Numbered from the stretch's first letter, positions 1,211-62,482 are shown. The stretch: 64,000 bases of DNA from Candidatus Parcubacteria bacterium (GCA_002869165.1 PKTK01000012.1:7275-71274), one strand, 5' to 3'. Notes: generated from the letters alone by a model not told the origin. Made by a program: numbers and translations.

Positions 1211-2440
1211 ATGGAAAAAGTCACTCATTTGGAACCGGAAAGCTTTTGCAAATTTGTAGGAGCAATCATGGAAGGGATGAAAAAGGGTGCTTCTGATGAT
1301 GACCTCTTTACAAGTATTTCGGAAAAAGTTTCAGGCTACTCTGATCATCTGATCAACTCAGGTATCAAAAAAGCTCGAAGCAATTATGAGAAAATCCAGG
1401 CAAAAGAACGGGAAAAACAGACATGGTTCAATACTGAGATCCTCACACCAATTCTCAATTCTGCTGATACTGAGATTGGTCTCAGGGAACTCCTGACCAC
1501 CGAACCAAAAGAGCTTACAGAAAAATGGCTACAGATGATCAAGTCTTCGCACAATGTCATCTACGCCGGTATCTCCCAGGCAGCCAAGATCTCTCTTGAG
1601 AAAATGGTTGAAGAAAAGTTTCACTACAATCATCTGGCCATGAGCATTCCCGACGCTGCCAAGGATATAGCCAACATGTGGATGCTACCCCGGTATTTTT
1701 TTACTCTCTGCTCCACAGTTGAAGCAAAGATCGCCCAGGACAAGGAGAGGCTCGAAACCAAGCGGGAAAATGCCAGGAAAAAGGCCAGAGAGGCAATCCA
1801 AAAAACTCAGGCTGAACTTGCCAAAAAGCAAGAAAAGAAAAGCCGGAGAAAAAGCCGGAGAAAAGAAAGCGTCGAAGCCTTATTGAGTCGACCCAAAGAA
1901 ATGGTCAGCCTCAAAGGCATCAAGATCCCGGTTATCATTATTGAGTCGAATCAAGAACTTGACCTTATCGGTACCGAGGAATTCTGTCAGCTTTCAGGTA
2001 TCATTCCCGACAAGCCAGTGCTGGTCAAGATGGACGGTGAATACTTCTGGATCTCCAAAACCAAAAGCGGTCGAACCAACAAGAACCTGGCCGAAAATGT
2101 TTCCAAACTTCAGACGAAAAAAGACAAACCTGAGATCGTTGACAACACCATTATTCCGCAAAACTTTACAGCAATGTGGGTAAAGGTAAATGGAAATGTA
2201 ACCAGGGCCATTATCGTCCCTAGTGATCTCTGGGACAACTCTGAGGTTATAAACAAACTAACAACTCCTCGGTACTTGATGAATACTGCTCCCAGCAAAG
2301 AAAACCGGGAGCCTGTATTCTATCATGACGGTCGAAAAATCGCCAAACTCGGTGAAGCCCGTCAGGCAACTCCTGAAGAAAGGAGATCTGCCAAAAATCC
2401 AAAAAGGGGAAAGGTAGACTGGTCCTCAACCAGTCTTTAA
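1211..2440 (+). CDS. hypothetical protein, compositional outlier with a Lys/Arg-rich coiled-coil middle
   Basis: AGGAGG RBS precedes ATG 1211, an internal Met of ORF 1124-2440. Long open frame with no motif I recognise. G+C visibly higher than neighbours. Confidence 0.7.
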   Translation: MEKVTHLEPESFCKFVGAIMEGMKKGASDDDLFTSISEKVSGYSDHLINSGIKKARSNYEKIQAKEREKQTWFNTEILTPILNSADTEIGLRELLTTEPKELTEKWLQMIKSSHNVIYAGISQAAKISLEKMVEEKFHYNHLAMSIPDAAKDIANMWMLPRYFFTLCSTVEAKIAQDKERLETKRENARKKAREAIQKTQAELAKKQEKKSRRKSRRKESVEALLSRPKEMVSLKGIKIPVIIIESNQELDLIGTEEFCQLSGIIPDKPVLVKMDGEYFWISKTKSGRTNKNLAENVSKLQTKKDKPEIVDNTIIPQNFTAMWVKVNGNVTRAIIVPSDLWDNSEVINKLTTPRYLMNTAPSKENREPVFYHDGRKIAKLGEARQATPEERRSAKNPKRGKVDWSSTSL

Positions 2441-2452
2441 AAAACAAAATAT

Positions 2453-2487
2453 GGGTATCTAGTGTAAACTAGATACCCGTTTTTTTA
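2453..2487 (+). terminator. rho-independent terminator
   Basis: GGGTATCTAGT pairs with ACTAGATACCC, followed by T7. Confidence 0.7.
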
Positions 2488-2536
2488 TACTTTAATAAAT
2501 ATGTTATAATGTAATTAAATATTAATAAAAAAACAT

Positions 2537-4297
2537 ATGGAAATAATTCTAACATTGATATTGTTTTTTATTCTACTTAGTAGACAAAACAATATTCAAA
2601 AAGAGCTTAATAGGCTAAAACAAACATTAAATGAAAGTTCGCCAATCAATATCCCCCAACCTCCTAGCCCTGAATCAAAAAGTCCTGAAAACATAAAAAC
2701 CGAACAATTCAGTCAAGACGATTTTTCTTTCTTGCAAGAAAATAAAACAGAAACTAATAACACAGAAAAAGTGGAAGAACATAAGGATATATTTTACCAA
2801 TTCATCGCTTGGATGATGAAAGATCCTCTTCTTAAAATCGGGGCCTTCTTGATGATACTAGCTGTTGCTTGGTTTATAAGCTATGCTTTCATGAATAACT
2901 GGATTGGTCCAATTGGTAGAATAACTCTTGGGATTGTTTCTGGATCTTTACTTATGCTCTTTGGACTTAAAAGAGCTGAAAAATTCCTTGACCAAGGTGC
3001 AGTATTTATAACTCTTGGGGGGGTTATTGCAATTATCAGTATTTTTGTAGCTCGAGAATTATACTCCCTTCTAACGCCACTAATAGCGCTGGGAAGCATA
3101 TTTTTAATTGCTTCTTTTATGGCTTATGTAAGTTTGAAATACAAAAGTCTCGCTCTATCGGTTCTAGCAATTTTTGCTGGTGGCATAGCACCACTTCTAA
3201 CTAACACACCCGAACCAAGCATGGTCGGGCTTTTTTCTTATTTATTCATCCTATCTGCTTCTGTTTTAATGATAGTTTCGGCAATGGGATGGCGAATACT
3301 AGCTCCTGTTTCATTTTCAATTGTTTTTCTCTATAACTTACCCTATATATTTTCTTACCATCTAAGCTCAACAGAAAAATTAAATGCAATTTTATTTGCT
3401 TTTGCTTTTGCTCTTCTTTTTTATTTAACCAGTGTTATAAATATTGTTATTCACAAAAAAGCAACTAACTCTGATCTAGCTCTAAGCGCTTTAAATGCAT
3501 TACTTTTAATTATTTGGATATCAATAGCTGTAATTGAAAATTTCCAGGGCTTAATAAGTCTTGCCACTGCTCTAGTTTTTGTCTTTGGTGCCTTTATAGT
3601 CTTTCAATTTTCCCGTATCAAAGAACCTTTTTACACTTATCTGGGAATAGCTCTTATATTTATCGGAGCAGCCACCATCTTTGAACTAGACGGATATGCT
3701 TTAGCGATTGCCTTTGTTATTGAAGCTACTACTGTGTCATTTTTGGCTTCAATGTTTGGTAAAACCAGAAACGATATCATTGTTCCAGCTTTTACTCTAA
3801 TCGTGCCTTTTATTTCAACAACCATGATAATTGATGACTTCCTACCAAGATACTTCAGCTTGAATGATTTTATCTTCTTACTCATCACCAGTCTTGCCTT
3901 ATTTATTCTCTTTTTACAATATTATTTCGTACAATACAAAAGAAATATTCACATTTCTCCTCTACCTCAATTAGTAGGTGTGGCTTCAATAGTTTATTTA
4001 TTTATTAATGTCTGGTATAGCTTAGAAACAATTATTTATTCTGACATGGCGGCTCATATGTTTGCCCTCATCTTTTACACTATTTTTGGACTTTCTATGT
4101 ATATCATCGGAGTAAATAATCATAGAAAAACTCAAATTAAAATTATCGGCGGTTCTATTCTAGGTCTAGTAGTAATTCGCTTACTCTCAGTTGAAGCATG
4201 GAATATGACTCTAAGTTTACGTATAATAACATTTTTTGTGATTGCTATTATTCTAATTGGCACAGCTTTCATTGGTAATAAATCTAAAGAACAATAA
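2537..4297 (+). CDS. polytopic membrane protein, DUF2339-like layout
   Basis: 586 aa. N-terminal TM, polar linker, then more than 12 hydrophobic helices. Confidence 0.7.
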   Translation: MEIILTLILFFILLSRQNNIQKELNRLKQTLNESSPINIPQPPSPESKSPENIKTEQFSQDDFSFLQENKTETNNTEKVEEHKDIFYQFIAWMMKDPLLKIGAFLMILAVAWFISYAFMNNWIGPIGRITLGIVSGSLLMLFGLKRAEKFLDQGAVFITLGGVIAIISIFVARELYSLLTPLIALGSIFLIASFMAYVSLKYKSLALSVLAIFAGGIAPLLTNTPEPSMVGLFSYLFILSASVLMIVSAMGWRILAPVSFSIVFLYNLPYIFSYHLSSTEKLNAILFAFAFALLFYLTSVINIVIHKKATNSDLALSALNALLLIIWISIAVIENFQGLISLATALVFVFGAFIVFQFSRIKEPFYTYLGIALIFIGAATIFELDGYALAIAFVIEATTVSFLASMFGKTRNDIIVPAFTLIVPFISTTMIIDDFLPRYFSLNDFIFLLITSLALFILFLQYYFVQYKRNIHISPLPQLVGVASIVYLFINVWYSLETIIYSDMAAHMFALIFYTIFGLSMYIIGVNNHRKTQIKIIGGSILGLVVIRLLSVEAWNMTLSLRIITFFVIAIILIGTAFIGNKSKEQ

Positions 4298-12438: not shown

Positions 12439-12840
12439 ATGAAATCCAGGATTATTGTGTTTTTTTTGGTTATTTTCAGTCTTTGTTCATGTGTTCAATA
12501 TGACAGGGCGCCAAACCAAGAATTACGCCCTCAACCAAGTCAGGGCGAAGGTTATTCTGTAATTAAAGTTGTCAACACTGCCGGTGATGTTGTTTTCAAT
12601 AGAGGAGTACTAAATGGGCTTATCCTAGCCCACCACCAAATGACTTTTGTTGAAATCCCCTGGGGAGCTCACAGAGTTTGCTGGTCACAAGCTCTACTCA
12701 ACGATAGGGTTGTGACATTCTGCCAAGACTTCATCATCACCAACCGGACTATGTCTATGGTGATTCGTCCACCTCGGAATGAAAGCGTGTTTCGCTACCG
12801 AGGACGAGGCAGTCTCCAGCTGTACGATTTTGACTATTAA
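12439..12840 (+). CDS. putative lipoprotein, compositional outlier
   Basis: AGGAGG RBS. Signal peptide ending in a lipobox-like LCSC. G+C visibly elevated. Confidence 0.6.
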   Translation: MKSRIIVFFLVIFSLCSCVQYDRAPNQELRPQPSQGEGYSVIKVVNTAGDVVFNRGVLNGLILAHHQMTFVEIPWGAHRVCWSQALLNDRVVTFCQDFIITNRTMSMVIRPPRNESVFRYRGRGSLQLYDFDY

Positions 12841-12845
12841 ATAAA

Positions 12846-12881
12846 AGGCGCTTATTCTTTCTACGAATAAGCGCCTCTTTT
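12846..12881 (+). terminator. rho-independent terminator
   Basis: AGGCGCTTATTC pairs with GAATAAGCGCCT, followed by a T-rich tail. Confidence 0.7.
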
Positions 12882-12894: not shown

Positions 12895-13311
12895 TTATGC
12901 TCCAATTATTCCACCAAGTGCCCTGAAAACAAAAGCTGAAATTATGTAAGCGGCTAGTATTATAATCAAACCAATTACTCCTCTGTTTAATGTAGCTTTG
13001 GCCTTAGCAGCCTTATCATCATTACCCGCTGCTGTCATCCAATTAAAACCACCTATAATAATCATAACTAAAAATATAATTCCCAAAAGCCCCAAAAAAG
13101 CTTGTATTATTGTTCCCATTACATCTCCAATCAAAAAATCACCTTCTCCTCCTTGAACATTATAATTACCTCCTCTTCCGCTGTCTTTGAGGTTATTAGT
13201 AACACTATTTTGCCCCTCATTATTTAGTAGCTGAGCATTTACTTAAAAAGCTACTATTAATCCAAAAAGTGAAAATGAAATATTAATTATTTTCTTGTAT
13301 ATTTTTTTCAT
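12895..13311 (-). pseudogene. TrbC/VirB2-like pilin paralogue interrupted by an in-frame TAA (13243-13245)
   Basis: ATG 13311 gives MKKIYKKIINISFSLFGLIVAF, then TAA, then 36 more in-frame sense codons joining ORF 12895-13134. The C-terminal core GGFNWMTAAGNDDKAAKAKATL is conserved. Confidence 0.6.
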
Positions 13312-13313
13312 AT

Positions 13314-13688
13314 TTATCCGACTATTGAATAAACAACAAACTGACTTATAGCATAAGCTGCTACCACTATAATCAAACCAACAGTTGCTCTGATCAAAGT
13401 AGTCTTAGCCTCATCTATCATTTGATCACGACCAGCTGCAATCATCCATCTAAAGCCAGCATATACTATCAAAACCAAAAAGATAATGCCAAGTAGACCC
13501 AAGAACACACTAATGATATCTCCTACAATAGTAGGCAAATCTGTGCTACTCTTACTGGTCTCAAATCCACCTTCTCCACCAACATTCTGCAGTCTATCCA
13601 TCGGACTATCAGCAAAAACAAAATAAGGCATAAGCATCACAGTAACAAGAGCTAGAACGATTAAGGTTGATTTAATAAATTTTAGCAT
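13314..13688 (-). CDS. TrbC/VirB2-like pilin family protein
   Basis: Signal peptide plus core AGFRWMIAAGRDQ..AK..L..VGLIIVVAAYAI. Confidence 0.75.
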   Translation of the reverse strand: MLKFIKSTLIVLALVTVMLMPYFVFADSPMDRLQNVGGEGGFETSKSSTDLPTIVGDIISVFLGLLGIIFLVLIVYAGFRWMIAAGRDQMIDEAKTTLIRATVGLIIVVAAYAISQFVVYSIVG

Positions 13689-13746
13689 ATATTTTTGTTT
13701 TTTATCACCTTTTATATTTAATTTGAATAAAAAGGCAAGTATTTTT

Positions 13747-14139
13747 TTAAAAGTCTAATGTAGATTTTGTTAGATTTTCTATTACAAAGGCGCTCAAAGC
13801 ATACGAAGCTACCACTATTATCATACCCACTATGGCAGCAGTTAATAAACTCTTGGCTTTTTCAATCTGAGATTCATTTCCCCTAGCAGTCATCCAAAGA
13901 AAACCACCATAAATTGCTAAAACCAAAAATATCACACCCAAGAAAGATAAGGCAAATCTAATAATAGTAGCAATCATTGGTTCAACAGAATCAACCTCAG
14001 TGTCATAGCCTGCTCCATTAGAACCAGCTGTATCATCTAACATGTTTTTCCAGTCACCTAAATTTTGTGCCAATGCAAAATCAGGCACAAAAGAAAAAAT
14101 CATAACCATTAATACTAATATCCAAATAAAATATTTCAT
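13747..14139 (-). CDS. TrbC/VirB2-like pilin family protein
   Basis: Signal peptide plus GGFLWMTARGNESQIEKAKSLL..IVGMIIVVASYAL. Confidence 0.75.
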   Translation of the reverse strand: MKYFIWILVLMVMIFSFVPDFALAQNLGDWKNMLDDTAGSNGAGYDTEVDSVEPMIATIIRFALSFLGVIFLVLAIYGGFLWMTARGNESQIEKAKSLLTAAIVGMIIVVASYALSAFVIENLTKSTLDF

Positions 14140-14143
14140 AATT

Positions 14144-14530
14144 TTAACTAAAAATACTTGCTATAGTTACGGTTATAGCATAAGCCGCTAAGACCACAAT
14201 TATACCAATTATTGCATTTTGCAAAGTCTTTTTTGCATCTCCTATTTTATCATCGTTGCCGGCTGAGGTCATCCATTTAAAACCAGCATACAATGCTAAA
14301 ATCAAAAAGAATACCCCAATAAAAGTTAAAACAAATCTAATAATGTCAGCGATTATTTCAGACAATGGCCTATTAATAACAACTGCATTATCTGATCCAT
14401 AAGCGTTTGTGCCAGTCACAAAAGCACCACTATCAGTTTCAAAATCATATGCTTGTGCCAGTCCTTGAAAAGAAAAAAACATCATTAGCAACAATATAAA
14501 AATATAAACTTTTTTATAAAACTTTATCAT
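14144..14530 (-). CDS. TrbC/VirB2-like pilin family protein
   Basis: Signal peptide plus AGFKWMTSAGNDDKIGDAKKTL..IIGIIVVLAAYAI. Confidence 0.75.
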   Translation of the reverse strand: MIKFYKKVYIFILLLMMFFSFQGLAQAYDFETDSGAFVTGTNAYGSDNAVVINRPLSEIIADIIRFVLTFIGVFFLILALYAGFKWMTSAGNDDKIGDAKKTLQNAIIGIIVVLAAYAITVTIASIFS

Positions 14531-14535
14531 AATTA

Positions 14536-14961
14536 CTATCTAGAATATACTCCCGCATCACTAGAGGTTAAGGCACTACCAATAAATACAGTAATAGCAT
14601 AGGCAGCTAGAACTATTATCATACCAATTATCGCAGACTGGATTATAGATTTTGCTTTTTCCACATTCTGTTCATTTCCTCTCGCAAACATCCAAGTAAA
14701 ACCACCATAGATCATCAAAAGAAAAAAGAAAACTCCAACAAGAGACAAAACTATTCCAACAATCCTACCGATAGCTTGAGGAATATCCGTCATAACACTA
14801 TTTCCATTCAAGCCCCCAGTACCAACTTCATTTCCCAAATATCCTGTATTAGCTGCCTCATTAAGACCTTCAAAAGCATTGTTAGCCATAGCAAACAACG
14901 GTGTCATTAATAACACAGCGAATAAAAAACTAAAAATATATTTTCTAAAAAATATTTTCAT
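14536..14961 (-). CDS. TrbC/VirB2-like pilin family protein
   Basis: The internal Met start (MKIFFRKY...) avoids overlap with the upstream gene. Core GGFTWMFARGNEQNVEKAKSII. Confidence 0.7.
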   Translation of the reverse strand: MKIFFRKYIFSFLFAVLLMTPLFAMANNAFEGLNEAANTGYLGNEVGTGGLNGNSVMTDIPQAIGRIVGIVLSLVGVFFFLLMIYGGFTWMFARGNEQNVEKAKSIIQSAIIGMIIVLAAYAITVFIGSALTSSDAGVYSR

Positions 14962-14965
14962 TATT

Positions 14966-15361
14966 TTAACCAATTGAAGTTTGTATTGCATTTAACACAA
15001 AAGTAGCTAAAGCAAATGCTGCTAATATTATAACTAAGCCAATGGTAGCATTAGCTAGTAATTTTTTGGCTTCTGTAACTTTATCTTCATTTCCTCCAGC
15101 TGTCATCCACTTAAAACCTGCAAATAATATTAGGCAAATAGCAACGATTCCCAAAAAACCCAAAACAACATTTATAATATCAGCTACTATTAATCTTGGA
15201 TCCTTTTCAGTGAAGCCTCCCATTTTGTTTCCAACTTCTTCTTTGTTTGGAAATATGTCAACTTTCGTATTGTCAGCTGAAACGCTAAGAGGAGTAGACA
15301 TAAAAGAAAAAGCTAATGACAAAAAGAAGACAAAAGCAAGTGTATTTTTTAAAAATTTCAT
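14966..15361 (-). CDS. TrbC/VirB2-like pilin family protein
   Basis: Signal peptide plus AGFKWMTAGGNEDKVTEAKKLL..IGLVIILAAFAL. Confidence 0.75.
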   Translation of the reverse strand: MKFLKNTLAFVFFLSLAFSFMSTPLSVSADNTKVDIFPNKEEVGNKMGGFTEKDPRLIVADIINVVLGFLGIVAICLILFAGFKWMTAGGNEDKVTEAKKLLANATIGLVIILAAFALATFVLNAIQTSIG

Positions 15362-15374
15362 TTTTTTTATTTAA

Positions 15375-15776
15375 TTATAAATCATTAGTTGTTACTCTAA
15401 AAATCGCATCCAAAACAAATGATGCTAGAGCATAAGACGCTAAAATTATTACCAAACCTATAACACCTGCTGACAAAGTCTTTTTGGCTGAATCAACTTG
15501 ATCGGTATTGCCCGCAGCAGTCATCCATCTAAAGCCAGCATATAGAATAATGCACACTGAAAGTATTCCTAAGAATCCTAATATTAAATTTATGATATTT
15601 GCAGCGATCAGTCTAGGATCATCATTTCCCAGTGCAGTTCGTGACTGAATATTTTCAGCTTGTCCTCCCCAAACAACATTATTTGCACTTCCAGAATTAG
15701 CATCAACTGCTGTGGCTAAACCTAAAAACAAAGAAAAGAGTAAAACAAAACTAAATATTTTTTTTGCTATTTGCAT
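15375..15776 (-). CDS. TrbC/VirB2-like pilin family protein
   Basis: Signal peptide plus AGFRWMTAAGNTDQVDSAKKTL..IGLVIILASYAL. Confidence 0.75.
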   Translation of the reverse strand: MQIAKKIFSFVLLFSLFLGLATAVDANSGSANNVVWGGQAENIQSRTALGNDDPRLIAANIINLILGFLGILSVCIILYAGFRWMTAAGNTDQVDSAKKTLSAGVIGLVIILASYALASFVLDAIFRVTTNDL

Positions 15777-15886
15777 CTTATTTATTTAATTATTAGCACC
15801 TTTTCCCAAATAATAATTTACTTGGGAAAAGGTGCTGCCCAAATATTTGAGCAACACAAAATTTCTAAAACCGGTTTTAGAAAATT

Positions 15887-16351
15887 TTAAAATCCTACGT
15901 TTGAGCCACTTGTTGTTACACGGAAAATAGCATCTAATACAAATGCGGCCAAAGCGTAAGCAGCTAGAATGATAACTAAACCAATCACACCTGAAACCAA
16001 AAGTCTCTTAGCTTCAGTTACCTTGTCCTCGTTACCTGCTGCAGTCATCCATTTAAATCCACCGAACAAGATCAAAACAACAGCTAAAATACCAAGGAAA
16101 CCTAGCATTAGGTTAATGATATTAGCTGCAATGTTTCTTGGATCATCATTTCCAAGAGAAGTTCTTGCTTGAATGTCATTGTTTCTAGTGTCCCATAGAG
16201 TATTGTTGGCACCTCCAACTTGAGTATTCCACCCTGTTCCACCTCCGACATCATTGTCATTACCTGCCATTGCTACTGTAGCGCTAAGCATAGAGAAAGC
16301 GAATACAAAAATAACAATAGCAGTGCTTATTTTTTTCAAAAATTTTGTCAT
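15887..16351 (-). CDS. TrbC/VirB2-like pilin family protein, first gene of the array
   Basis: Signal peptide plus GGFKWMTAAGNEDKVTEAKRLL..IGLVIILAAYAL. Followed by two hairpins at 15777-15886. Confidence 0.75.
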   Translation of the reverse strand: MTKFLKKISTAIVIFVFAFSMLSATVAMAGNDNDVGGGTGWNTQVGGANNTLWDTRNNDIQARTSLGNDDPRNIAANIINLMLGFLGILAVVLILFGGFKWMTAAGNEDKVTEAKRLLVSGVIGLVIILAAYALAAFVLDAIFRVTTSGSNVGF

Positions 16352-16606
16352 AAGTCACCCCCTATTCTATTTTATTTCAAAACAAAAAATTATTTCATTC
16401 CGAAATATATTTTAGTTATTAACATTTTCTTAATTTTACCATTTTTCTAAACTTTCTACAACATTTTTTTGGTTTTTTTTCAAATTTTTCTATTTTTCTT
16501 GATATTTTCTAAAAATCATTGTATTATTTTTGAGTAACTTGTAGTTTGTAACTTTTATCTTTTAGTTGCCCTAGAAGCTAAAAGCTAAGAACTAAAAACT
16601 AAATAA

Positions 16607-23465: not shown

Positions 23466-24143
23466 TTATGGGTTATTAACCAATATTTTTCTTTCTTGTT
23501 TATTTTCTCGACTGTACTTTTTACTCGCTACCACCACAATCGTATTAAGGCCAGATTTTAACTTTATGGATTTCTCAAAGCTCCCTGTTTGATTGGTAAG
23601 GACTAAAACATTATTTATATAAACTTCTGCTTCTACATCACTTTGACCTTGAACTAAAACCTCCTTTTCTATGGTGACAAAATCTTCTGGCGGATAAATA
23701 ATCTGCAGTTCAGGTGGAGCTATAATATTGTTCAAATAAAAAGCCAAATAAACTAAACAAAAACTAACAGCAACTACAATGAGTAAATTTTTGATTAGTT
23801 TTGGAATAGTAACAAAATAATGTACATTGGTAGCTTTTTTTACAAAATAATTATTTATATTTACTTCTTTTTTTTCTTTTTCAGTTTCACCAAAAAGAGC
23901 TGTCAGCTCTTTGGCTGATAGCCCTAAATATATTGCATATTCTCTTAAAAAATTAACTCTATATACTCCAGTTGGCAATTCTTCAAAATTCCCTCTTTCT
24001 AAGGCTTCCAAATATTTCTGGTTCATTTTTAAATCTCTAGAGGCATCTTTCAAACTGATTTTCTTTTCCTGTCTGGCTCTTCTTAATTCTTTGGCAATAA
24101 TTTCATTATTTTCCAAAATTTTATAAGTATGAAACTCTTTCAT
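23466..24143 (-). CDS. RodZ-like HTH membrane protein
   Basis: N-terminal XRE-type HTH, a single TM, and a C-terminal beta-rich domain. Confidence 0.6.
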   Translation of the reverse strand: MKEFHTYKILENNEIIAKELRRARQEKKISLKDASRDLKMNQKYLEALERGNFEELPTGVYRVNFLREYAIYLGLSAKELTALFGETEKEKKEVNINNYFVKKATNVHYFVTIPKLIKNLLIVVAVSFCLVYLAFYLNNIIAPPELQIIYPPEDFVTIEKEVLVQGQSDVEAEVYINNVLVLTNQTGSFEKSIKLKSGLNTIVVVASKKYSRENKQERKILVNNP

Positions 24144-24147
24144 TTTT

Positions 24148-24564
24148 TTAAGGGGTTACATTCCAGTTAGAATTACTATTTTCTGTTCCCTTTATCCCTT
24201 TCATAAAGTAGTCTACAGCTGTATAGGCAAACAAAACAATTATAAGCCCCACTACTGCTGCAATTATTGCACTTTTTCCTTTGCTTATCATGTCCTTGTT
24301 TCCAGCTGCCAATATAAACATAAGTCCACCCACTATAAAAGCCAGCAAAGATAGTGAACCTGATAAATACAAAACCCATTTAGAAATAGTCACTAATACC
24401 AATATTAAATCATTTGCTGTATAGTCGCCAGTCTCCTTTCCGCTTTCAGGAACAATATGTTCATTAGCCAAATTACCAGCCTGAACTGAATCAATAGCTC
24501 CACTCAAAAAAATTCCCAGCAAAAAAACGGTAAATAAAATTATTAATACTTTTTTTGATTTCAT
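24148..24564 (-). CDS. TrbC/VirB2-like pilin family protein (dispersed copy)
   Basis: Signal peptide plus GGLMFILAAGNKDMISKGKSAI..VGLIIVLFAYTA. Confidence 0.65.
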   Translation of the reverse strand: MKSKKVLIILFTVFLLGIFLSGAIDSVQAGNLANEHIVPESGKETGDYTANDLILVLVTISKWVLYLSGSLSLLAFIVGGLMFILAAGNKDMISKGKSAIIAAVVGLIIVLFAYTAVDYFMKGIKGTENSNSNWNVTP

Positions 24565-24588
24565 AAAAAATAATAAATAAAACTATAG

Positions 24589-26013
24589 CTAATCATTCAA
24601 AAGACTTGCATTTATAGTCTGCTGAACTTTCTTTTCGGTATTTTTAATTGCTTTTCTCATCTCAACTTCTCCTGACAATACATTGGTAATCATATCTTTC
24701 ATGGCTTGTTCGGCGCTATTGGCATCATTGCCTTTGTACCATGACTTGGCTGTAAGAACCTGATCTACATAAGCTTCTAAATCAAGTTCTTCTTTTTGTA
24801 CATTCACTAAACTACGCAATGCAGTGGTCTTTCTGGTTGCATCAAGATAATTTATAGCATTTTGCGCTTGAGTAGCAAAGAGAATAAAATCCCAAGCCTC
24901 ATTTTGATGTCTACTTTTACTAGCAACTGACTCTACCCAATAATTAGCAAAATTAACAGGTGTATTTCCTTGAATTTGCGGAAATCTAGTAACCACTAAA
25001 TTCATTTTTGGATTTCCTGCTTCAATTTGAGGAATCATATAAGAATAACCAAACATTATTGCTAATTTACCACGAATAAACAGATCAAGCGAATTATCCA
25101 TACTACCATTCCAACAATACACTTCTTTAGCAGGATTGGCAAAATCTGTATAAAAACGTAAAGCATCTTCTCCTGGTGATTCTGAAATATTCTCATAATC
25201 ATCAGGTGTTTTAGATATTGTTACATTGGTAAAGGTCAAATCCATCATCTCTGTTCCGTTTTGCATCATTAGAGCTGAAAGAATATCACTAGACCTTTCA
25301 ATATTTTCACTTCCTCCAAGCGCTACACCTGATTGAATGATCTCGCCTTTATTGTTTTGCTTAGTTAATTTTCTAACAGTTTGCTGAAAATCTGTATCCC
25401 AATAGCTTGGAATATCAGTGATGCCAGCATTATTAAGCAAATCTCTGTTTACAAACATAAGCAGAGTATCAACCGCTACCGGAAGACCATAAACATAATT
25501 TTTCACTTGCTTGGTTTGACCATCTTTCACGCTAATAACCACATCATCATAAACTACATCAACAAACTCACTTTTAATATCATTAAGAGTTGGGCTGGCT
25601 TGAGTTTTTACAACTGGGACCAATTCTTTTTTGATAGTTCCCCTAGTTTCTGTAAAAAGCATAGTAGTAGTATCAGGCATTGGAGCTATCCAATCTCTAC
25701 TTTGATATTTTCGGGTCCAAGTATTATGAATAGAAAATATATCAGGCACCTGATCAGAGGCAAATGCTTCCAGTAATTTCTGCTCGTACTCTTCATAACG
25801 AATTAATTTATAATTTACATTCACAAATGGATGTAGAGCGTTATATTCATTGATAATAGTTTGGAATGTTTCTGACTCATCCCATACTCGCCAATATTCC
25901 AAAGTAACGTCCTGGCCCAATGAAGCTGTATTACTAGAAACACATTTACACCCAAAACCAGATAATAATATAAAAATAATAACCAATACAAATAAATTTA
26001 GATTTTTTCTCAT
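24589..26013 (-). CDS. ABC-transporter extracellular solute-binding lipoprotein (sugar-type SBP)
   Basis: Lipobox LLSGFGC from the internal Met. Size and motif pattern fit family-1 SBPs. No permease or ATPase genes adjacent. Confidence 0.65.
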   Translation of the reverse strand: MRKNLNLFVLVIIFILLSGFGCKCVSSNTASLGQDVTLEYWRVWDESETFQTIINEYNALHPFVNVNYKLIRYEEYEQKLLEAFASDQVPDIFSIHNTWTRKYQSRDWIAPMPDTTTMLFTETRGTIKKELVPVVKTQASPTLNDIKSEFVDVVYDDVVISVKDGQTKQVKNYVYGLPVAVDTLLMFVNRDLLNNAGITDIPSYWDTDFQQTVRKLTKQNNKGEIIQSGVALGGSENIERSSDILSALMMQNGTEMMDLTFTNVTISKTPDDYENISESPGEDALRFYTDFANPAKEVYCWNGSMDNSLDLFIRGKLAIMFGYSYMIPQIEAGNPKMNLVVTRFPQIQGNTPVNFANYWVESVASKSRHQNEAWDFILFATQAQNAINYLDATRKTTALRSLVNVQKEELDLEAYVDQVLTAKSWYKGNDANSAEQAMKDMITNVLSGEVEMRKAIKNTEKKVQQTINASLLND

Positions 26014-26134
26014 ATTTATAATAAAAAATATTTTATAAACTACCAATATTATAACACAAACAGAAAAAATTTGAAATTTTTAATTTTCAATCTTTTAAAC
26101 TACTTTAAATTATTAATATTATAATTTTTCATTA

Positions 26135-32849: not shown

Positions 32850-33237
32850 GGGGATGCTGGGTTTCGATAGAGAGACTATCATTTTGCATTCGAGATGAGT
32901 TCGTGGGAGTCTCATAAAAACTTTCACACCTAAATAAGTGCAAAAAATGTACTAGCAAAAGCTAAAGCTGCTTTCAGCATGCCAGCTTTTGCACCTGTTG
33001 TCGCTTAAAATTGCCACAACCATCCGACTTCTTGATGTCTAGTAGGGAAGACCCGGGTGTCATATCACTAGACTGGACCCGAGTGTGCGGTTAACTTTGG
33101 TCGAGATTTATCAAACTGCTCGCTGTTTATTTTTTTGTTTGGTTTTTAGATAAACAGTTAAATCACAAACTAATCTAGTCTTCGTAAAATTGTAAAATGT
33201 AACTTTCTAGACGCGAGTTCAACTCTCGCCATCTCCA
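32850..33237 (+). ncRNA. ssrA: tmRNA (SsrA)
   Basis: 5' GGGGATGCTGGGTTTCGA. 3' T-arm GCGAGTTCAACTCTCGC plus acceptor CATCTCC-A with the G3:U pair. Candidate tag ORF 32940-33008 is AKNVLAKAKAAFSMPAFAPVVA*. Adjacent to smpB. Confidence 0.9.
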
Positions 33238-33238
33238 C
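33216..33238 (+). repeat. attL core (part of the functional tmRNA 3' end)
   Basis: Identical to 41857-41879. Confidence 0.85.
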
Positions 33239-34418
33239 AATCAGAAGCAGAACCGAAAGGTTCTGTTTTTGGTTTATTGTTAGCATTAAACTGGACTCCT
33301 AATGACTTCATAATATCTACAAATTGAGCCTTGTTTATTTGCTCACTGTCCATATACTGTCCTTTTTTAGACAAAAGCTTGATTGAGTCCTCTAAAGTTG
33401 AAGGTGAAAGATGGGCGTATCGCATCGTAGTGGAGACACTGCTGTGTCCCATTAACTTTTGAATAACGACTATTGGACAGCCTTTCATCGCCAGATGACT
33501 GGCAAAACTGTGACGAAGGGCGTGCCACATAATCTTTCTGTCTTCCTTATTTTTTAGGTCTAAATTGCTTATAGCTTTTTTTAATGCCCTACGAGCGAGG
33601 TTTTCCTCAAGAAAGTTTCCATTTTTGTCTGTAAAAACAAAACCTTTTGATTTTTTCCTTCTTTCAAATATTTCACGAACCTCATAATCAAAAGGAATAT
33701 GTCTTTCCTTGCTGTTTTTTGGCACTCCTAATATATTTCGGTAGAAAGACTTTCTGACTGAAATAACATTCGTCTCAAAATTTATATCTGACCAACTTAA
33801 TGCACGAATTTCGCCATAACGAAGTCCTGTTCGCAAAACAAGCAATATCATATCTTTTAACATCCCATCAGTTGAACTTAATAATAAATCACTTTCTTCA
33901 AATGAAAGAAAATCATAATCTTGTGGAGGGACTTTTAAAAGTTTTATTTTAGGTTTCTTTTCAAGTTCGCTCCACTCAACCGCAAATTTAAGTATCGTGT
34001 TTAGAACAGTGATGTGTTCATTGATAGTCTTGTTGGCTAATCCCTTATTTTTGTTTAATGCCTTAAACTCTTCTATATTTAAACTTGTAATTAAATCCAG
34101 TTTTTTCTTTCCAAAAAAGGGGATGAGGTGCTTATTGAGAATGCTTGCCCTACCACGCACTCCTGAAATTTTACAATTATTCTTCACATAAACTTCGTGC
34201 CATTTCCAGGCAAATTTTTCAAATACTTCAACTTCCTTTTGCACTTTCTTAACAAAAGGATTTTCACCCTTTACCAATTTTTGCATTATCAATCTTTCAA
34301 AAGCTAAAGCTCCGTTTCTACTATTTTCAGGAGACTTCTTTCTGTATCTTTTACCTTGGTAACGAATATCAATGAACCACTTATTATTGGTGGTGTGTTT
34401 ATTTTTTATTACTGCCAT
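33219..34418 (-). CDS. tyrosine-type site-specific integrase
   Basis: Motifs: TGLRYGEIRAL (Arg I), HALRHSFASHL (H-x-x-R), GHSSVSTTMRYAHL (catalytic Tyr). The start is taken at MAVIKNK.... The last codons run into attL. Confidence 0.9.
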   Translation of the reverse strand: MAVIKNKHTTNNKWFIDIRYQGKRYRKKSPENSRNGALAFERLIMQKLVKGENPFVKKVQKEVEVFEKFAWKWHEVYVKNNCKISGVRGRASILNKHLIPFFGKKKLDLITSLNIEEFKALNKNKGLANKTINEHITVLNTILKFAVEWSELEKKPKIKLLKVPPQDYDFLSFEESDLLLSSTDGMLKDMILLVLRTGLRYGEIRALSWSDINFETNVISVRKSFYRNILGVPKNSKERHIPFDYEVREIFERRKKSKGFVFTDKNGNFLEENLARRALKKAISNLDLKNKEDRKIMWHALRHSFASHLAMKGCPIVVIQKLMGHSSVSTTMRYAHLSPSTLEDSIKLLSKKGQYMDSEQINKAQFVDIMKSLGVQFNANNKPKTEPFGSASDCGDGES

Positions 34419-34614
34419 ATACATCTTCAATACTGTCAATATTAAAACTATTTTTGACCTTATCAAGATTAAAACGGATTTGTCTGCCGACTTTAAAAAA
34501 AGGAATTTTGCGTTCTGTTACAAGACGATAAACAGTTGTAACAGAAACTTGCAACTCATCAGCAAGTTCTTCACCCTTTAAAAAATCTTTAGTTTTATTA
34601 TATTCAGTATTCAT
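34399..34614 (-). CDS. excisionase / MerR-AlpA-type HTH DNA-binding protein
   Basis: LKGEELADELQVSVTTVYRLVTERKIPFFKVGRQIRF. Lies immediately upstream of and overlapping the integrase. Confidence 0.8.
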   Translation of the reverse strand: MNTEYNKTKDFLKGEELADELQVSVTTVYRLVTERKIPFFKVGRQIRFNLDKVKNSFNIDSIEDVYGSNKK

Positions 34615-50636: not shown

Positions 50637-50720
50637 GCCCAGGTGGTGGAATTGGTAGACACGAGGGACTTAAAATCCCTTGGCCGCAAGGCTGTGCGAG
50701 TTCGATTCTCGCCCTGGGCA
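50637..50720 (+). tRNA. tRNA-Leu (anticodon UAA), long variable arm, CCA not encoded
   Basis: GCCCAGGTGGTGGAATTGGTAGACACGAGGGACTTAAAATCCCTTGGCCGCAAGGCTGTGCGAGTTCGATTCTCGCCCTGGGCA. Confidence 0.9.
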
Positions 50721-50901
50721 CAAAAAGGAGAAAACTGAAAAGTTTTCTTTTTTTGTGAAGCCAGGGTGGAAGCGAACTCGCATATGAAGTGCAAAGACTT
50801 CCATTAAAAAAAGGCTCATAAAAAAATAATATTAAAATTGAAAACAAAAAAAATTCTTGAGGGGGTGCCCTTTTCAGGGCTTCGATTCTAGCCCTGGGCA
50901 C
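50721..50901 (+). mobile_element. cargo-less mini-insertion at the tRNA-Leu 3' end (element A)
   Basis: 50881-50901 repeats 50701-50721 (20/21), offset 180 bp. TTGAGGGGGTG 50857-50867 and hairpin GCCCT-TTTC-AGGGC 50867-50880 abut the ghost copy. Terminators at 50729-50755 and 50909-50928. Confidence 0.5.
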
Positions 50902-52636: not shown

Positions 52637-53923
52637 CTATTTAGCAACATTCCATTCAAGCAACTTATCTATTGTTTTTCTAGAAGTCTGTACATTTACA
52701 AAATAATTTCGATATTCAGGAGTACCCAACCTCTTAATCACATCTGCATTTTCCTTATAGTGCATTTTCATATGCTCAATATGTTCATCGATTTCCTTGT
52801 CTTCCACTTTAATATTTTCTTTTTCTGCAATTTCCCTGATTAATAAAGAAACTTTTACTCTATTAGTAGCATCAGGCAACATATCAATCTGCAATTGCTC
52901 TCTGGATTTACCAATACTTTTCAGGTAATCATCAAACTTAGCACCTTGTTGCGCGAGACCATTTTCCAACTCAGATAACATAGTTTGACCCTCCTGTTCA
53001 ATCAACATTGGAGGGATATCACCAAATTTTGTATTTTTAACAATTTTATCAAGCAACTCCTTCTCTGTCTCTCTTCCTTGTTCTTGCTCTTTTTGTCCTT
53101 TAATACTTTTTTCGATATTTTCTTTCAGTTCTTTGAGACTTTTAAGTCCAAAAGCGATAGCAAATTCATCGTTTAGCTCAGGAAGCTTTCTGTCATAAAC
53201 TTCTTTAATATCAACTTTAAAATCAACCATTTTACCAGCAATATTTTTCATATAATTATCTTCTGGATATGGCAAGCTAAATTCCTTATGATCACCCTTT
53301 TTAGCACCATTAAGCTGTTTATCAAAACCTGGCACTAAAAAATCCTTGCCCATCAATACAGCTGTGCCTTGAGCCTGTCCTCCTTCAATTGGAACATTAT
53401 CGTGAAACATCTGAATATCTACAAGCACTTTATCACCTTCTTTTACTTCTCTATCAGCTAGGGTTTCAACCACTCTTGATTCTTTTAGTTCATCAAGGGT
53501 TTTAGTTATTTCATCTTCTTCAACTTTAATTTCTTTTGGTTTAATTTTTAAATCTTTGTAACTTTCAATGGCAACTTCTGGAATAATAGCTACAGATATT
53601 TTATATTCTACAGGGTTATTTGGAGCTAACTTTACAATATCAACTTTTGGTTGACCTATTAGTTTGCCGTCTCCAAGTTCAGCGAGAGCTTTTTCAATTG
53701 TTTTATTAATAGCTATTCGTGCAGCTTCCTCTAATATTGCCATTTCACCAATTTTCCCTTTCAAAACATCATAAGGAATTTTTCCTGATCTGAAGCCGTC
53801 AATTTTTACTTCCTTAGAGATCTTGGATACACCCTGATCGATGTATGGCTTGAACTCATCAACTGAAAGTTCAACTGTAAGTTCTATTTGAGATTTTACA
53901 ATCTCTCCTTTTTTTACATTCAT
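52637..53923 (-). CDS. tig: trigger factor
   Basis: N-terminal ribosome-binding GFRSGKIP motif, central FKBP-like domain, 428 aa. Confidence 0.9.
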   Translation of the reverse strand: MNVKKGEIVKSQIELTVELSVDEFKPYIDQGVSKISKEVKIDGFRSGKIPYDVLKGKIGEMAILEEAARIAINKTIEKALAELGDGKLIGQPKVDIVKLAPNNPVEYKISVAIIPEVAIESYKDLKIKPKEIKVEEDEITKTLDELKESRVVETLADREVKEGDKVLVDIQMFHDNVPIEGGQAQGTAVLMGKDFLVPGFDKQLNGAKKGDHKEFSLPYPEDNYMKNIAGKMVDFKVDIKEVYDRKLPELNDEFAIAFGLKSLKELKENIEKSIKGQKEQEQGRETEKELLDKIVKNTKFGDIPPMLIEQEGQTMLSELENGLAQQGAKFDDYLKSIGKSREQLQIDMLPDATNRVKVSLLIREIAEKENIKVEDKEIDEHIEHMKMHYKENADVIKRLGTPEYRNYFVNVQTSRKTIDKLLEWNVAK

Positions 53924-54000
53924 AATATATTTTATTAATTTATTATTTAAGTTCTTGATTTTTTAAATTTTGGCAGGACTTTTTAGGGTCCTGCCTTTTT

Positions 54001-54216
54001 TTATACGCAACCGCAAGTTTGCCCACCTCCTGGAATGTAGTTTTTACGTAAATACACCGGTGTTGTAACTAGAATGCCTGTATCCTTTCCACAAACCACA
54101 CATCTTTCAGTCTCTTTACTTATATCACCAGTAAATATTTTTCCGCAATCAACACAATCAATTCTTCCGCCTTCAGTAATATTAAATCTTTCACAAGCAC
54201 ATTCTTCACATTTCAT
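54001..54216 (-). CDS. small zinc-ribbon protein
   Basis: CEECAC..., CVDCG and CVVCG motifs. 71 aa. Confidence 0.55.
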   Translation of the reverse strand: MKCEECACERFNITEGGRIDCVDCGKIFTGDISKETERCVVCGKDTGILVTTPVYLRKNYIPGGGQTCGCV

Positions 54217-54226
54217 TTTTTCTCTC

Positions 54227-55156
54227 CTATTTGTCGAATTCTTCTGAAAATTTTGGAGCTACCTGTTTTTTTCGTGACATTATTCCATCAATATACAGTC
54301 TTTTATTCTCCAAACTAGAGCCTAAGGCCTTCTCTACTCTAGCTTCATCAGTACTAGTTACTAAAAATCTTGAGCCTCCTTTGATTATATCCGTTAAAAA
54401 CAGTACTACACTATGATATGCTTCTTGCTCTATCATTTCTTCCATTTTTTCAAGTAGTGCACCTTCTCTTGGTTCAAAAACACTTAAATCAGCTGTTTCT
54501 ACTTGTCCGATGCCAAACTTACCATCTTTAAAATTAAAATCTTTAAAATCGCTTTTAATTATTTCTTCATCGCTTAAATCGGAAATATCACTGCGAACTT
54601 TAAATATTTCCATGCCAAAGTCCTCGAATGAAGAAACTTCTGCTACTCCTGACAAATGTTTAATAAGTTCTATGTCAATATCAGTACAAGTTGGTGATTT
54701 GGTAATAACAGTATCAACTAACATAGCAGCAAGCATACAAGTAGCCATACTCTTCTCAATTTCTACTAAATTCTGCATATAAAGAGATGTAATAATAGAA
54801 CAACTTGCCCCCCATGGCTTAATAATAACTTCAATTGGATTGCTATATTTAAAATCAAGCTTATGATGATCAAGGATCTCAACAATTTCAGCATCTTCAA
54901 TTCCTTCTTGGGCTTGGGCAAATTCATTATGATCTACCAAGATTACTTTTTTCCCTGCTAATGAGTCAAGTTTTTCTGGTAATGCTACATTATATTTTTC
55001 CAAAATATATTTAGTTTCTTTGTTGGCTTCACCCGCTATTACAGGTTTGTAGATATCGGTATTCTCAATCTTATTCTTTAGATTAGCGTATGAAATTGCT
55101 GCCACCACTGAATCTAAGTCTGGTGACTTATGACCGATTACATAAATATTAGACAT
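54227..55156 (-). CDS. ppaC: manganese-dependent inorganic pyrophosphatase (family II, DHH)
   Basis: VIGHKSPDLDSV, VDHNE, LDHHKL and the DHHA2 region. Confidence 0.9.
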   Translation of the reverse strand: MSNIYVIGHKSPDLDSVVAAISYANLKNKIENTDIYKPVIAGEANKETKYILEKYNVALPEKLDSLAGKKVILVDHNEFAQAQEGIEDAEIVEILDHHKLDFKYSNPIEVIIKPWGASCSIITSLYMQNLVEIEKSMATCMLAAMLVDTVITKSPTCTDIDIELIKHLSGVAEVSSFEDFGMEIFKVRSDISDLSDEEIIKSDFKDFNFKDGKFGIGQVETADLSVFEPREGALLEKMEEMIEQEAYHSVVLFLTDIIKGGSRFLVTSTDEARVEKALGSSLENKRLYIDGIMSRKKQVAPKFSEEFDK

Positions 55157-55167
55157 ATTGTTTTGCT

Positions 55168-55262
55168 TGTCATTTCAAACGAAGTGAGAGATCTGTGTTT
55201 ATAATCAAAAATAATTTTGTATTATCAATTTATCTCTTCATTTCGCTACGTTTAAAATAACA
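55168..55262. repeat. TGTCATTTC...AAATAACA palindromic-family element (degenerate)
   Basis: TGTCATTTCAAACGAAGTGAGAGAT...ATCTCTTCATTTCGCTACGTTTAAAATAACA. Confidence 0.45.
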
Positions 55263-55282
55263 AAAATAATAATTTCTAAAAA

Positions 55283-56530
55283 CTATTTTTCTTCGGTTGG
55301 TGCTTCTGTTTCAATTTCTGCTTTTTCTTCAAGCTCCTTTTCTTCAAGTGTATCATCATTATCTTCTTCTCCTTCAAGTTGAAGGACATCAATATTCCAA
55401 CCAGTTAATTTGGCAGCTAGTCTTGCATTTTGACCTGATTTTCCAATTGCAAGCGACAACTGATCAGAACTAACAAAAACCTTAGCTTTTTTACTTTCCT
55501 CATCAGTCTCTACTTTAATAATCTTAGCTGGAGATAAAGCATTGGAAATATATGCCACAGGATCATCATCGTATTCAATAATATCAACCTTTTCACCACC
55601 AAGCTCGGTTATAATTGTTTGGATACGAGCACCACGTTGACCCACACAAGATCCGATTGGGTCAACATTTTCTGAGTCAGTAAAAACTGCTACTTTTGAT
55701 CTAGCGCCTGCTTCCCGGGCTACTCCTTTTAGATCAATTAAACCGTTTGAAATCTCTGGAATTTCTAAATAGAATATTTTCTTCAAGATCTCTTCTGACG
55801 TTCTTGAGAGTAAAATTTCTGGTCCTCGAGGTTTAAGAGACACTTGTTTTACATAAACTTTAATTCTCTCGCCTGGTAAGTATTTCTCGCCTCTGATTTG
55901 TTCATCCATTGGAAGAACTCCAACGGATTTACCCAAGTCTACCAAAATAACTGAACCTTCTCTTCTTTGCACAGAACCGCTAACTACTTCGCCTTCTTTG
56001 TCCTTAAATTCAGAAAATACCATTTCTCTTTCAGCTTCTCTAAGTTTTTGGATAATAACCTGTTTGGCAGTTTGAGCTGCCATTCTACCATAAGCAGGAG
56101 GAGTCTCTAGTTTTATTTTTAATTCGTCGCCAACTTTGACTGTTTTTTTGATCATCTTAGCATCTGATATTTGAATATCAGTTTTGTGATTAAATTTTCT
56201 TTCTTCTTCCTCGCCGTCCTCTTCAACTTTTACTGTTTCAATCTTTTTGTCTTCCTTTTTTTCTTTTTTATTATCTTCTTTTTCTTCCGCTTCTCCCTCT
56301 TCAAGCTCTTGAAGTTCTTCTTCAGGTAAATCGTCTACCACTGTTTTTACATCATAGATTTTAGACTTAGTAATTTCTTCAGCAAACTCTACTTTAATAT
56401 TTTGGTTCTTTTTACCAAAATCTTTTCTATAAGCAGCTGCTAGAGCTGATTCAATAGTTTCAATAACAGCATCATATTCCAGCTGTTTTTCATCACAAAT
56501 TTGCTTAATAGCATTTGTAATTTCTTTCAT
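55283..56530 (-). CDS. nusA: transcription termination/antitermination factor NusA
   Basis: S1 domain and two KH domains (GQRGARIQ, GKSGQNARLA), with an acidic insertion and tail. Confidence 0.9.
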   Translation of the reverse strand: MKEITNAIKQICDEKQLEYDAVIETIESALAAAYRKDFGKKNQNIKVEFAEEITKSKIYDVKTVVDDLPEEELQELEEGEAEEKEDNKKEKKEDKKIETVKVEEDGEEEERKFNHKTDIQISDAKMIKKTVKVGDELKIKLETPPAYGRMAAQTAKQVIIQKLREAEREMVFSEFKDKEGEVVSGSVQRREGSVILVDLGKSVGVLPMDEQIRGEKYLPGERIKVYVKQVSLKPRGPEILLSRTSEEILKKIFYLEIPEISNGLIDLKGVAREAGARSKVAVFTDSENVDPIGSCVGQRGARIQTIITELGGEKVDIIEYDDDPVAYISNALSPAKIIKVETDEESKKAKVFVSSDQLSLAIGKSGQNARLAAKLTGWNIDVLQLEGEEDNDDTLEEKELEEKAEIETEAPTEEK

Positions 56531-56705
56531 ATATTTATTTCTATCCTCCTATTTAATTGGAGTTATTAATAATTAAAAAATTTAAAAAAAATACTAGTTT
56601 ATCGATATTGATAACTAGTCTTAATATGAATTATACTAACATATAAAAATGTAAATGTCAAACTCCCATACCGGTTTATTAATATCTAATAATTATCACA
56701 CACTT

Positions 56706-56776
56706 TGTCATTCCCACGAAGGCGGGAATCCACAACAATGCTACAAACCTGAATTCCCGCCTTCGTGGGAATGACA
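56706..56776. repeat. archetypal TGTCATTCC palindromic element (24-bp perfect arms)
   Basis: TGTCATTCCCACGAAGGCGGGAAT 56706-56729 pairs with ATTCCCGCCTTCGTGGGAATGACA 56753-56776. Confidence 0.85.
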
Positions 56777-56864
56777 AAAAAATAAAACTAAAACGGCAAA
56801 ACAATTAAATAAAAAATGTACATACATATGTACGTACATTTTTTATTTAGATTATTTCAAGATT

Positions 56865-59267: not shown

Positions 59268-59333
59268 ATAAAAATTTTTACAATCAGTAAAGTCGTTCCT
59301 TTACTCCTTGTTGTTATTAAATTATTAGAGTAT

Positions 59334-59699
59334 TTAAAATTTTAGATATTTACTTGCATAAGAACCAATATAAGGAAGCTCTTTCTTGTCTCCGTTATTA
59401 GCATTGATAATGCCCATAACTGCAAGAACTAAATATGCAGCATACAAAAGCGGATACAAAAGCATGCCAATCAAAGTCAAAGCAACCAGGATACTTACCG
59501 CAATATCTGCAATTATCAAACCAAGGGCTTGTTTAACATGAAATTTGGCAAACTCGCTTTTTTTCATTTTCTCATCTAGAAAAAACCAAATAACGCCAAT
59601 TAGCAAATATGCCAAAATAGCGCAGACTTTTTCATTCTCCACTTTTTTGTTTTCTTCTTTTTTTTCTTCCTCTTTTTTTACTTGTTTTTCTTCTTGCAT
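59334..59699 (-). CDS. DUF4870-like small membrane protein
   Basis: CAILAYLLIG..FAKFHVKQAL pattern with three TM helices. Confidence 0.55.
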   Translation of the reverse strand: MQEEKQVKKEEEKKEENKKVENEKVCAILAYLLIGVIWFFLDEKMKKSEFAKFHVKQALGLIIADIAVSILVALTLIGMLLYPLLYAAYLVLAVMGIINANNGDKKELPYIGSYASKYLKF

Positions 59700-59872
59700 A
59701 AAGTTTCAGATAAACATACAATCAAGACAAGCCTGGTTATATGTTTAGATAGATTTTAATCTTTTTTATTATAACATATTTTTTGATATAATTGTAATGA
59801 ATTACAATTATAAGCGCATATACCAAATCAACAAACACAAATTCAAATCTCATAAATAAATCAAACCCAAAA

Positions 59873-61531: not shown

Positions 61532-61685
61532 TTATTAATTTAAAATTTGTAAACAATTTATAATATTTTTTTAAATTACAAAATAACTTTTTTATCCGCC
61601 TTCTCTTCTACGATCGAAAGACCTCAGACGTCCCGGGGACGTCGGAGGTCTAAATAGCTCGAATAATGTTATAAATCTATAAATA

Positions 61686-62429: not shown

Positions 62430-62482
62430 TTATTATTTTTCAAATAACAAAAATAAAGTTCTTTATCAAAAAGTAGGAGAAT

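Follow-up and report, generated by a model that had tools for sequence, protein, structure and literature searches.

We analyzed a 64,000-nt stretch of DNA from Candidatus Parcubacteria bacterium (GCA_002869165.1, PKTK01000012.1:7275-71274), hereafter the window, in which positions 12895-16351 hold a tandem array of genes for putative TrbC/VirB2-like pilins. The genes run head-to-tail, all on the minus strand, as eight open reading frames (ORFs) encoding proteins of 124-154 amino acids (aa), in agreement with the 120-155 aa given in the original prediction, which had been made from the sequence alone. It had also described nine array genes and a tenth copy at 24148-24564. The tandem minus-strand arrangement and the outlying copy hold; the counts do not, as a search of all six-frame ORFs of the whole window with a hidden Markov model (HMM) built from the copies found eight genes in the array, the solitary one, and no others, nine copies in total.

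We named the copies c1 to c9 and assigned them to paralogue types A to G. Three type-A genes stand first. The candidate major subunit c1 (15887-16351, minus strand, 154 aa) scored 42.5 bits with the Pfam family PF18895 (T4SS_pilin) and 31.8 bits with PF04956 (TrbC/VirB2), both above the gathering thresholds of 26.6 and 27.9 bits, respectively. It is followed by c2 (15375-15776, minus strand, 133 aa, PF18895 33.7 bits), which is 53% identical to c1, and c3 (14966-15361, minus strand, 131 aa, 36.3 bits), whose core is 74% identical to that of c1. The type-B gene c4 (14536-14991, minus strand, 36.4 bits) encodes 151 aa from its first ATG, but more likely starts at 14961 (141 aa, as in the Joint Genome Institute (JGI) gene call), in which case its 26-nt overlap with c3 disappears. 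The array continues on the same strand with c5 of type C (14144-14530, 128 aa, 33.4 bits), c6 of type D (13747-14139, 130 aa; 25.3 bits against the cut-off of 26.6, and E 0.002 with PF04956), c7 of type E (13314-13688, 124 aa, 40.6 bits) and c8 of type F (12895-13311), which has 138 codons with an in-frame TAA and scored 40.1 bits on the part after the stop. The solitary type-G copy c9 (24148-24564, minus strand, 138 aa, 28.6 bits) is 22% identical to the array copies.

By reading of the sequence, all nine copies have a K-rich n-region, a hydrophobic h-region and an AxA-type site at the end of the signal peptide. The following segment is 24-42 aa long, shorter than the 30-60 aa first estimated, and consists overall of 41% Gly, Asn and Asp. 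The core is formed by two hydrophobic helices linked by the conserved loop WMTAAGNEDK..AK, so that the layout of signal peptide, Gly/Asn/Asp-rich segment and two-helix C-terminal core is present in each copy as originally described. An AlphaFold2 (AF2) model of c1 consists of a signal helix (residues 2-28), a disordered stretch (29-56) and a helical hairpin (71-103/108-148), with a mean predicted local distance difference test (pLDDT) score of 78 and values above 90 in the core.

PF18895 matched 9/9 copies, eight of them above the gathering score (28.6-42.5 bits). With PF04956, c1 passed, c6 (18.6 bits), c3 (17.7 bits) and c9 (12.4 bits) fell below the threshold, and the remaining copies gave no match. 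The top 120 database homologues all carry PF18895, and the family is large, with 75,182 representatives at 50% identity (E <= 1e-3) in an exhaustive profile search. When a 77-sequence family profile was aligned with mature Agrobacterium tumefaciens VirB2, hhalign returned a probability of 80% (E 1.3e-5) with 40% identity over 52 columns. The type IV pilin class III signal (PF07963, N_methyl) had no match at E <= 1 in any copy, and a tblastn search of plasmid and phage collections with c1 found no match. Taken together, the HMM matches and the profile alignment support the assignment to a VirB2-like pilin family, and here the original prediction was borne out.

We noticed that NCBIfam NF045849, a pilin-like conjugal transfer protein of Mycoplasma integrative and conjugative elements (ICE), matched 8/9 copies (best E 3.7e-10) better than the VirB2 models did. 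The score of c1 was 33.7 bits, below the cut-off of 40; the array proteins are thus related to NF045849 but are not members of it. Like the array proteins, the Mycoplasma ICE proteins (Mbov_0395, MMCAP2_0565) have a matching two-helix core, and both occur in wall-poor or monoderm hosts with T4SS (type IV secretion systems) of the MPF_FATA type; unlike them, the ICE genes are single-copy. The matches suggest that PF18895-like pilins also occur in Mollicutes MPF_FATA systems, which a recent survey describes as having no VirB2 homologues (Quiñonero-Coronel et al. 2025, PMC12102498).

To describe how the copies differ, we compared the eight array proteins with each other. Over the whole length, mean pairwise identity was 30% (20-53%); the cores were more alike, at 47% (31-75%), and the N-terminal segments less so, at 11%. 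The core, first described as nearly invariant, has only 8 invariant columns. We then compared the window with a syntenic relative, GCA_964539005.1 (L008), whose housekeeping proteins are 49-81% identical to those of the window and in which the gene order YchF, array, FtsH is the same. Reciprocal best matches were collinear: c1-R1, c2-R2, c4-R3, c5-R4, c6-R5, c7-R6, c8-R7 and c9-R9. Identities within pairs included 64% for c1 and R1, 55% for c8 and R7, and 55% for c6 and R5, the last rising to 64% in the supposedly variable segment. Further orthologues were found for c4 (S2, T4), c5 (S3) and c7 (S5). The third gene, c3, is an additional type-A copy with no one-to-one orthologue in L008. Between the two genomes, the N-terminal segments of orthologous pairs were 42% identical and those of non-orthologous pairs 22% (p = 2e-5); in the core the values were 62% and 39% (p = 7e-6).

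A scan of GTDB species genomes yielded 79 related loci, mostly labelled Falkowbacteria, Magasanikbacteria, Uhrbacteria or the Patescibacteria group. Their tandem runs have a mode of six genes (42/79 loci) and reach thirteen. The genes were typed with HMMs for types A-G, in which the separation of C from D is fuzzy. At least five copies are present in 68 of the arrays; in 61 of these the first gene is of type A, in 55 the last two are E-F, and 49 follow the pattern A+ B x(1-3) E F. Most of the 68 open with a single type-A copy, but 7 have none and the highest number is ten; the window has three, followed by B, C, D, E and F. The array is therefore an ordered set of old paralogue types, whose order and type-specific N-terminal segments are kept across related species. 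One relative, L029 (BM507), bears a 9-gene array of its own at the TruB locus, where the window has none.

Type G stands apart: in about 25 relatives it is a solitary copy that precedes the array by a few kb. In the window, c9 follows a solute-binding-protein (SBP) gene and is separated by 4 nt from a RodZ-like HTH_25 gene downstream of it, confirming the neighbour first noted there. The string of SBP, type-G pilin and HTH_25 genes (23466-26046, with gaps of 24 nt and 4 nt) recurs in L008 at 1613-4107. Conservation in so tight a string suggests a role of the type-G pilin distinct from that of the main array.

The paralogues are also joined in nature. In the exhaustive profile search, many proteins had 2-17 matched stretches, each a two-helix core. 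In three fusions that we inspected, a single signal peptide precedes four or six hairpin cores and none occurs between them; a fusion of two cores takes the fifth place in an array of six genes (L089 6001-6723). Such fusions (among them P0241, P0243, P0245, P0270 and P0007, the first two with six repeats) would amount to polytopic "poly-pilins" with as many as about 34 helices. They indicate that neighbouring paralogues act side by side in one membrane assembly.

We next considered how the array might be expressed. The 255-bp divergent intergenic region between c1 and ychF (16352-16606) is the presumed array promoter region, and holds weak sigma-70-like matches on the minus strand at 16433-16404 and 16398-16369. 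At the other end, a bidirectional terminator-like hairpin (12846-12876) between c8 and the convergent gene 12439-12840 closes the array; it has a 12-bp stem with 6 GC pairs on the plus strand and a T-run also on the minus strand. Within the array, the 110-nt c1-c2 spacer (15777-15886) has a minimum free energy (MFE) of -40.6 kcal/mol (z -7.4) and contains a minus-strand stem-loop (15795-15836) whose 19-bp inverted repeat is 95% complementary. Spacers after type-A genes in related loci (n=97 folded) had a median length of 101 nt, MFE of -36 kcal/mol and z of -5.8, with 76% at z < -3. Those after types B-E had median lengths of 5-10 nt and z from -1.5 to 0.05, with 11-33% at z < -3; few of them are long enough to fold, so their MFE values are not comparable. 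The post-type-A hairpins (in L006, L008, L029 and other related loci) differ in sequence by genome and are constant in position. In some pilus operons a stem-loop follows the major-subunit gene. Type A is first in the operon and the only amplified type, and the hairpin could make its transcript more stable or reduce read-through, which by analogy suggests that type A is the abundant major subunit and B-F low-copy minor subunits.

Housekeeping genes surround the array. One flank encodes FtsH and a small secreted protein, the other YchF, a methyltransferase, S6/SSB/S18, EF-P and RecA. The only Walker-A proteins of the window are YchF, ComM, FtsH and RecA. The lack of VirB4, VirB6, VirD4 and pilus ATPase genes from the window, already noted in the original prediction, was confirmed, and secretion machinery is likewise missing from the +-10 kb around the 79 related arrays; absence of machinery beside the array is the rule in this lineage.

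In our judgement the locus is probably a chromosomal operon of VirB2-like pilin genes (PF18895) in a Falkowbacteria-like member of the Patescibacteria (Candidate Phyla Radiation, CPR), a lineage that we take to be GTDB class ABY1, and it would build a T4SS-dependent heteromeric surface structure with type A as the major subunit. The proteins would be exported by Sec and cleaved by signal peptidase, and would come to lie in the membrane, both termini facing outward. They would then be assembled by a VirB4-type T4SS, encoded at another genomic site, into a heteromeric surface or pilus-like structure, in which type A would be abundant and B-F would be low-copy minor subunits held in fixed proportion. 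This structure may serve host-cell contact or uptake from the host cell.

Several observations weigh against this explanation. Pfam scans of 40 window ORFs found no VirB4, VirB6, VirD4, PilB or PilT, the 10 kb beyond the right end of the window hold housekeeping genes only and no secretion machinery, and a VirB4-like ATPase lies within +-10 kb of the array in 0/79 related loci; from the window and those 10 kb, a T4SS could not be shown in the source genome. In the available parts of the literature we found no observation of a pilus made of PF18895 proteins. Structural comparison gave little help: a Foldseek search of the PDB with the c1 model returned generic helical hairpins only, with no VirB2/TraA and nothing at E <= 0.001, the best match being ATP-synthase subunit c (E 0.23). 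This null result is expected for a bare hairpin and speaks neither for nor against the family assignment. A family-profile HMM search of the PDB found solved VirB2 weakly (E 2.7-5.5). The post-type-A hairpins have no U-tracts, and their role in expression is a guess. Finally, the fusions fit a heteromeric structure but are difficult to square with monomers that simply polymerise.

Some of these points would suit a T4SS-independent membrane hetero-oligomer, that is, a ring, channel or envelope scaffold of two-helix hairpins in which each type has a fixed place. The arrays of this lineage are never beside VirB4 (79 loci, +-10 kb), fusions of 2-17 hairpin units share one signal peptide and one of them lies inside an array, the order and number of types are fixed, and the nearest fold match, weak as it is, forms rings. 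Against such an oligomer, VirB2/TrbC homology is detectable, and elsewhere in Patescibacteria the same family sits in T4SS loci and is essential together with them, according to two studies (PMC10633639, PMC12102498). The membrane hairpin is also the pre-assembly state of conjugative pilins. We regard the oligomer as rather unlikely.

The original prediction had read the array as diversification of a surface filament or adhesin, or as antigenic or phage-receptor variation. In such a system the exposed segments would evolve fast or be swapped, varying an adhesin or antigen or escaping phages. The paralogues are indeed far less alike in the N-terminal segment than in the core (11% against 47%), type-A copy number differs between species, and adaptation to different host strains has been suggested (PMC12102498). 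Between orthologues, however, the segment is conserved (42% against 22%, as above), and its proportion of nonsynonymous differences (pN 0.38) lies well below that of synonymous ones (pS 0.72), although saturated synonymous divergence (dS) allows no exact ratio; a comparison of dN/dS had been proposed as a check on variability. The order of types is conserved across species, and all copies are complete genes that encode their own signal peptides. We found no hallmarks of antigenic variation: there were no silent or truncated cassettes in the array, and no sign of exposed segments evolving faster than neutral between orthologues. A repeat scan found no long identical repeats able to drive cassette exchange, and independent assemblies of the population disagree at only 3 sites in the 3.4-kb array. 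As the segment is conserved between orthologues and the type order is kept across species, each paralogue type has its own version of the "hypervariable" segment; diversification is not supported, and we consider a diversification system very improbable.

The interrupted copy needs a separate explanation. In the window, codon 23 of c8 (13243-13245) is the one in-frame TAA. It is TCA (Ser), with the gene intact, in two other assemblies of the same population, the 239-kb JGI metagenome contig L001 and the Logan assembly L002; the locus is also present in assemblies of the European Nucleotide Archive (ENA). The window differs from L001 at 5 sites over 20.5 kb (13244, 14740, 15256, 6596, 8961) and from an ENA contig at 14 sites over 11 kb (within 53257-63743). 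At 17/19 of these sites a T or A in the window stands against a G or C in the other assemblies, which looks like oxidative-damage-type consensus errors in the metagenome-assembled genome (MAG). With TCA in the other assemblies and this T/A bias, the stop probably reflects a consensus error, or else a rare variant of the MAG, and not a decaying gene; the one interrupted gene first described is seen in the window and is intact in two other assemblies of its population. A set of recently duplicated, redundant genes that drift is degrading, the stop-bearing copy being the first to become a pseudogene, is hardly credible: the stop is missing from two other assemblies and matches a G>T / C>A error pattern, and orthologues of each paralogue type are conserved in other species. 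In a low-coverage ENA contig (1.9x; L003 804-1262), c2 has 8 residues of helix 1 (CIILYAGF) missing, either an assembly artefact or a strain variant.

Returning to the T4SS-dependent surface structure, we compared the array with known systems. Such arrays are already published (PMC12102498, PMC10633639), so the array as a feature is not new. Quiñonero-Coronel et al. (PMC12102498) searched 3,035 Patescibacteria genomes with PF18895 and PF04956 and reported 441 VirB2 arrays, each of 2-11 genes, from 383 assemblies; identity within arrays averaged 25% and reached at most 54%. Pilin genes lay near virB4 in only 1135/1948 assemblies, and the T4SS loci of class ABY1 lay near comF, recG and radA. The array described here is another instance of these arrays, including the separation from the machinery. 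It shares with them (including those of ML1 and the TM7x "Sec secreted array") PF18895, tandem same-strand divergent copies, a Sec signal with two helices, comparable identity (mean 30% and maximum 53% against 25% and 54%) and a chromosomal location often away from virB4. Published arrays were reported to be most abundant in Microgenomatia and Saccharimonadia, whereas the lineage of the window is Falkowbacteria-like. In Candidatus Southlakia epibionticum ML1, a predicted pilin series inside the T4SS cluster is essential (Wang et al. 2023, PMC10633639); unlike there, the array is not inside a T4SS locus here or in the 79 relatives. In the available parts of the publications on these arrays, we found no mention of the fixed A(n)-B-C-D-E-F order, the post-type-A hairpin or the GT-C neighbour (see below).

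TrbC/VirB2 pilins (PF04956; A. tumefaciens T-pilin, PDB 8cue/8exh) likewise have a signal peptide and a two-helix hairpin, and A. tumefaciens VirB2 shares "DP..I..NI...LG..G" at the start of helix 1 and G(F/I)xWM at its end. Unlike these diderm pilins, the array proteins are extended N-terminally by 24-42 aa and have 8 more residues in the loop; their host is a monoderm, genes for VirB5, VirB7, VirB9 and VirB10 are not nearby, and 8/9 copies fall below the PF04956 threshold. Tandem amplification of divergent VirB2 genes is also known from Anaplasma and Bartonella, an analogy drawn in PMC12102498; those paralogues are read as antigenic or host-range variants, whereas the types of the window are conserved one-to-one and in order between species. 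Major/minor pilus operons (chaperone-usher pap/fim; type IV) are alike in design only, with a first or amplified subunit gene and a stem-loop followed by packed genes for distinct subunits. The families are unrelated, and the array has no N-methyl signal and no usher, chaperone or PilB/PilC gene.

Patescibacteria rely on host cells, and in the sole available genetic study a T4SS and its pilin array were essential for epibiotic growth; a 2025 review calls a T4SS pilus in Patescibacteria monoderms an intriguing possibility (PMC12857230). The comparison of about 80 species suggests that the paralogues contribute to a single assembly as non-redundant components and are not interchangeable variants, because the type order is fixed, the type-specific segments are conserved and natural fusions exist. 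If expression is graded between major and minor types, as suggested above, then stoichiometry, heteromers and glycoproteins are more relevant than antigenic variation.

Related arrays most often have as neighbour a gene for a polytopic membrane protein (~500-670 aa) that no Pfam family matches. Its homologues, of the GT-C fold, occur in 40/79 related loci, always <600 bp from the first pilin gene and divergent from it (e.g. L029 8269-9891). In the window the corresponding 552-aa protein, a tentative candidate partner, is encoded at 59873-61531 on the plus strand, 43.5 kb from the array, and is restricted to CPR and unannotated. Its AF2 model (pLDDT 89.8, predicted template modelling score 0.91) matched DPY19 C-mannosyltransferase (E 2e-6), STT3 of the eukaryotic oligosaccharyltransferase and archaeal AglB in Foldseek (range E 2e-6 to 1e-4), the AglB match taking in the C-terminal globular domain. 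The acidic residues D34 and D36 are invariant and, judged from position, are taken to lie in the first external loop. Adjoining this gene is that of a GT2 glycosyltransferase (61686-62429, plus strand, PF00535), a tentative partner whose homologue lies <=2.5 kb from the GT-C gene in 30/41 cases in relatives. The block of GT2, GT-C and array recurs in at least three different wider gene contexts, and the linkage of GT-C and array is broken in the lineage of the window. From gene neighbourhood in related species only, glycosylation of the pilins by the GT-C/GT2 pair is a reasonable hypothesis. C-mannosylation of a conserved type-A Trp was set aside as speculation, as only 54% of type-A copies have Trp in the exposed segment and none of these segments has a WxxW motif.

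Solved conjugative pili have five subunits per layer. A more specific version of the T4SS-dependent structure is a monoderm assembly of fixed composition, with amplified A and five minor subunits B-F, whose N-terminal segments would be glycosylated by GT-C and GT2; we regard this version as a long shot.

Elsewhere in the window, a tyrosine integrase gene (33219-34466, minus strand) abuts the 3' end of the transfer-messenger RNA (tmRNA) gene (32850-33240). It is followed by ~17 kb of low-GC DNA, up to tRNA-Leu at 50637-50721, encoding a DUF4238 protein, a 987-aa TSP3-repeat protein and a histidine kinase. This low-GC stretch is probably a genomic island integrated at ssrA. The ENA contig starts near 50655.

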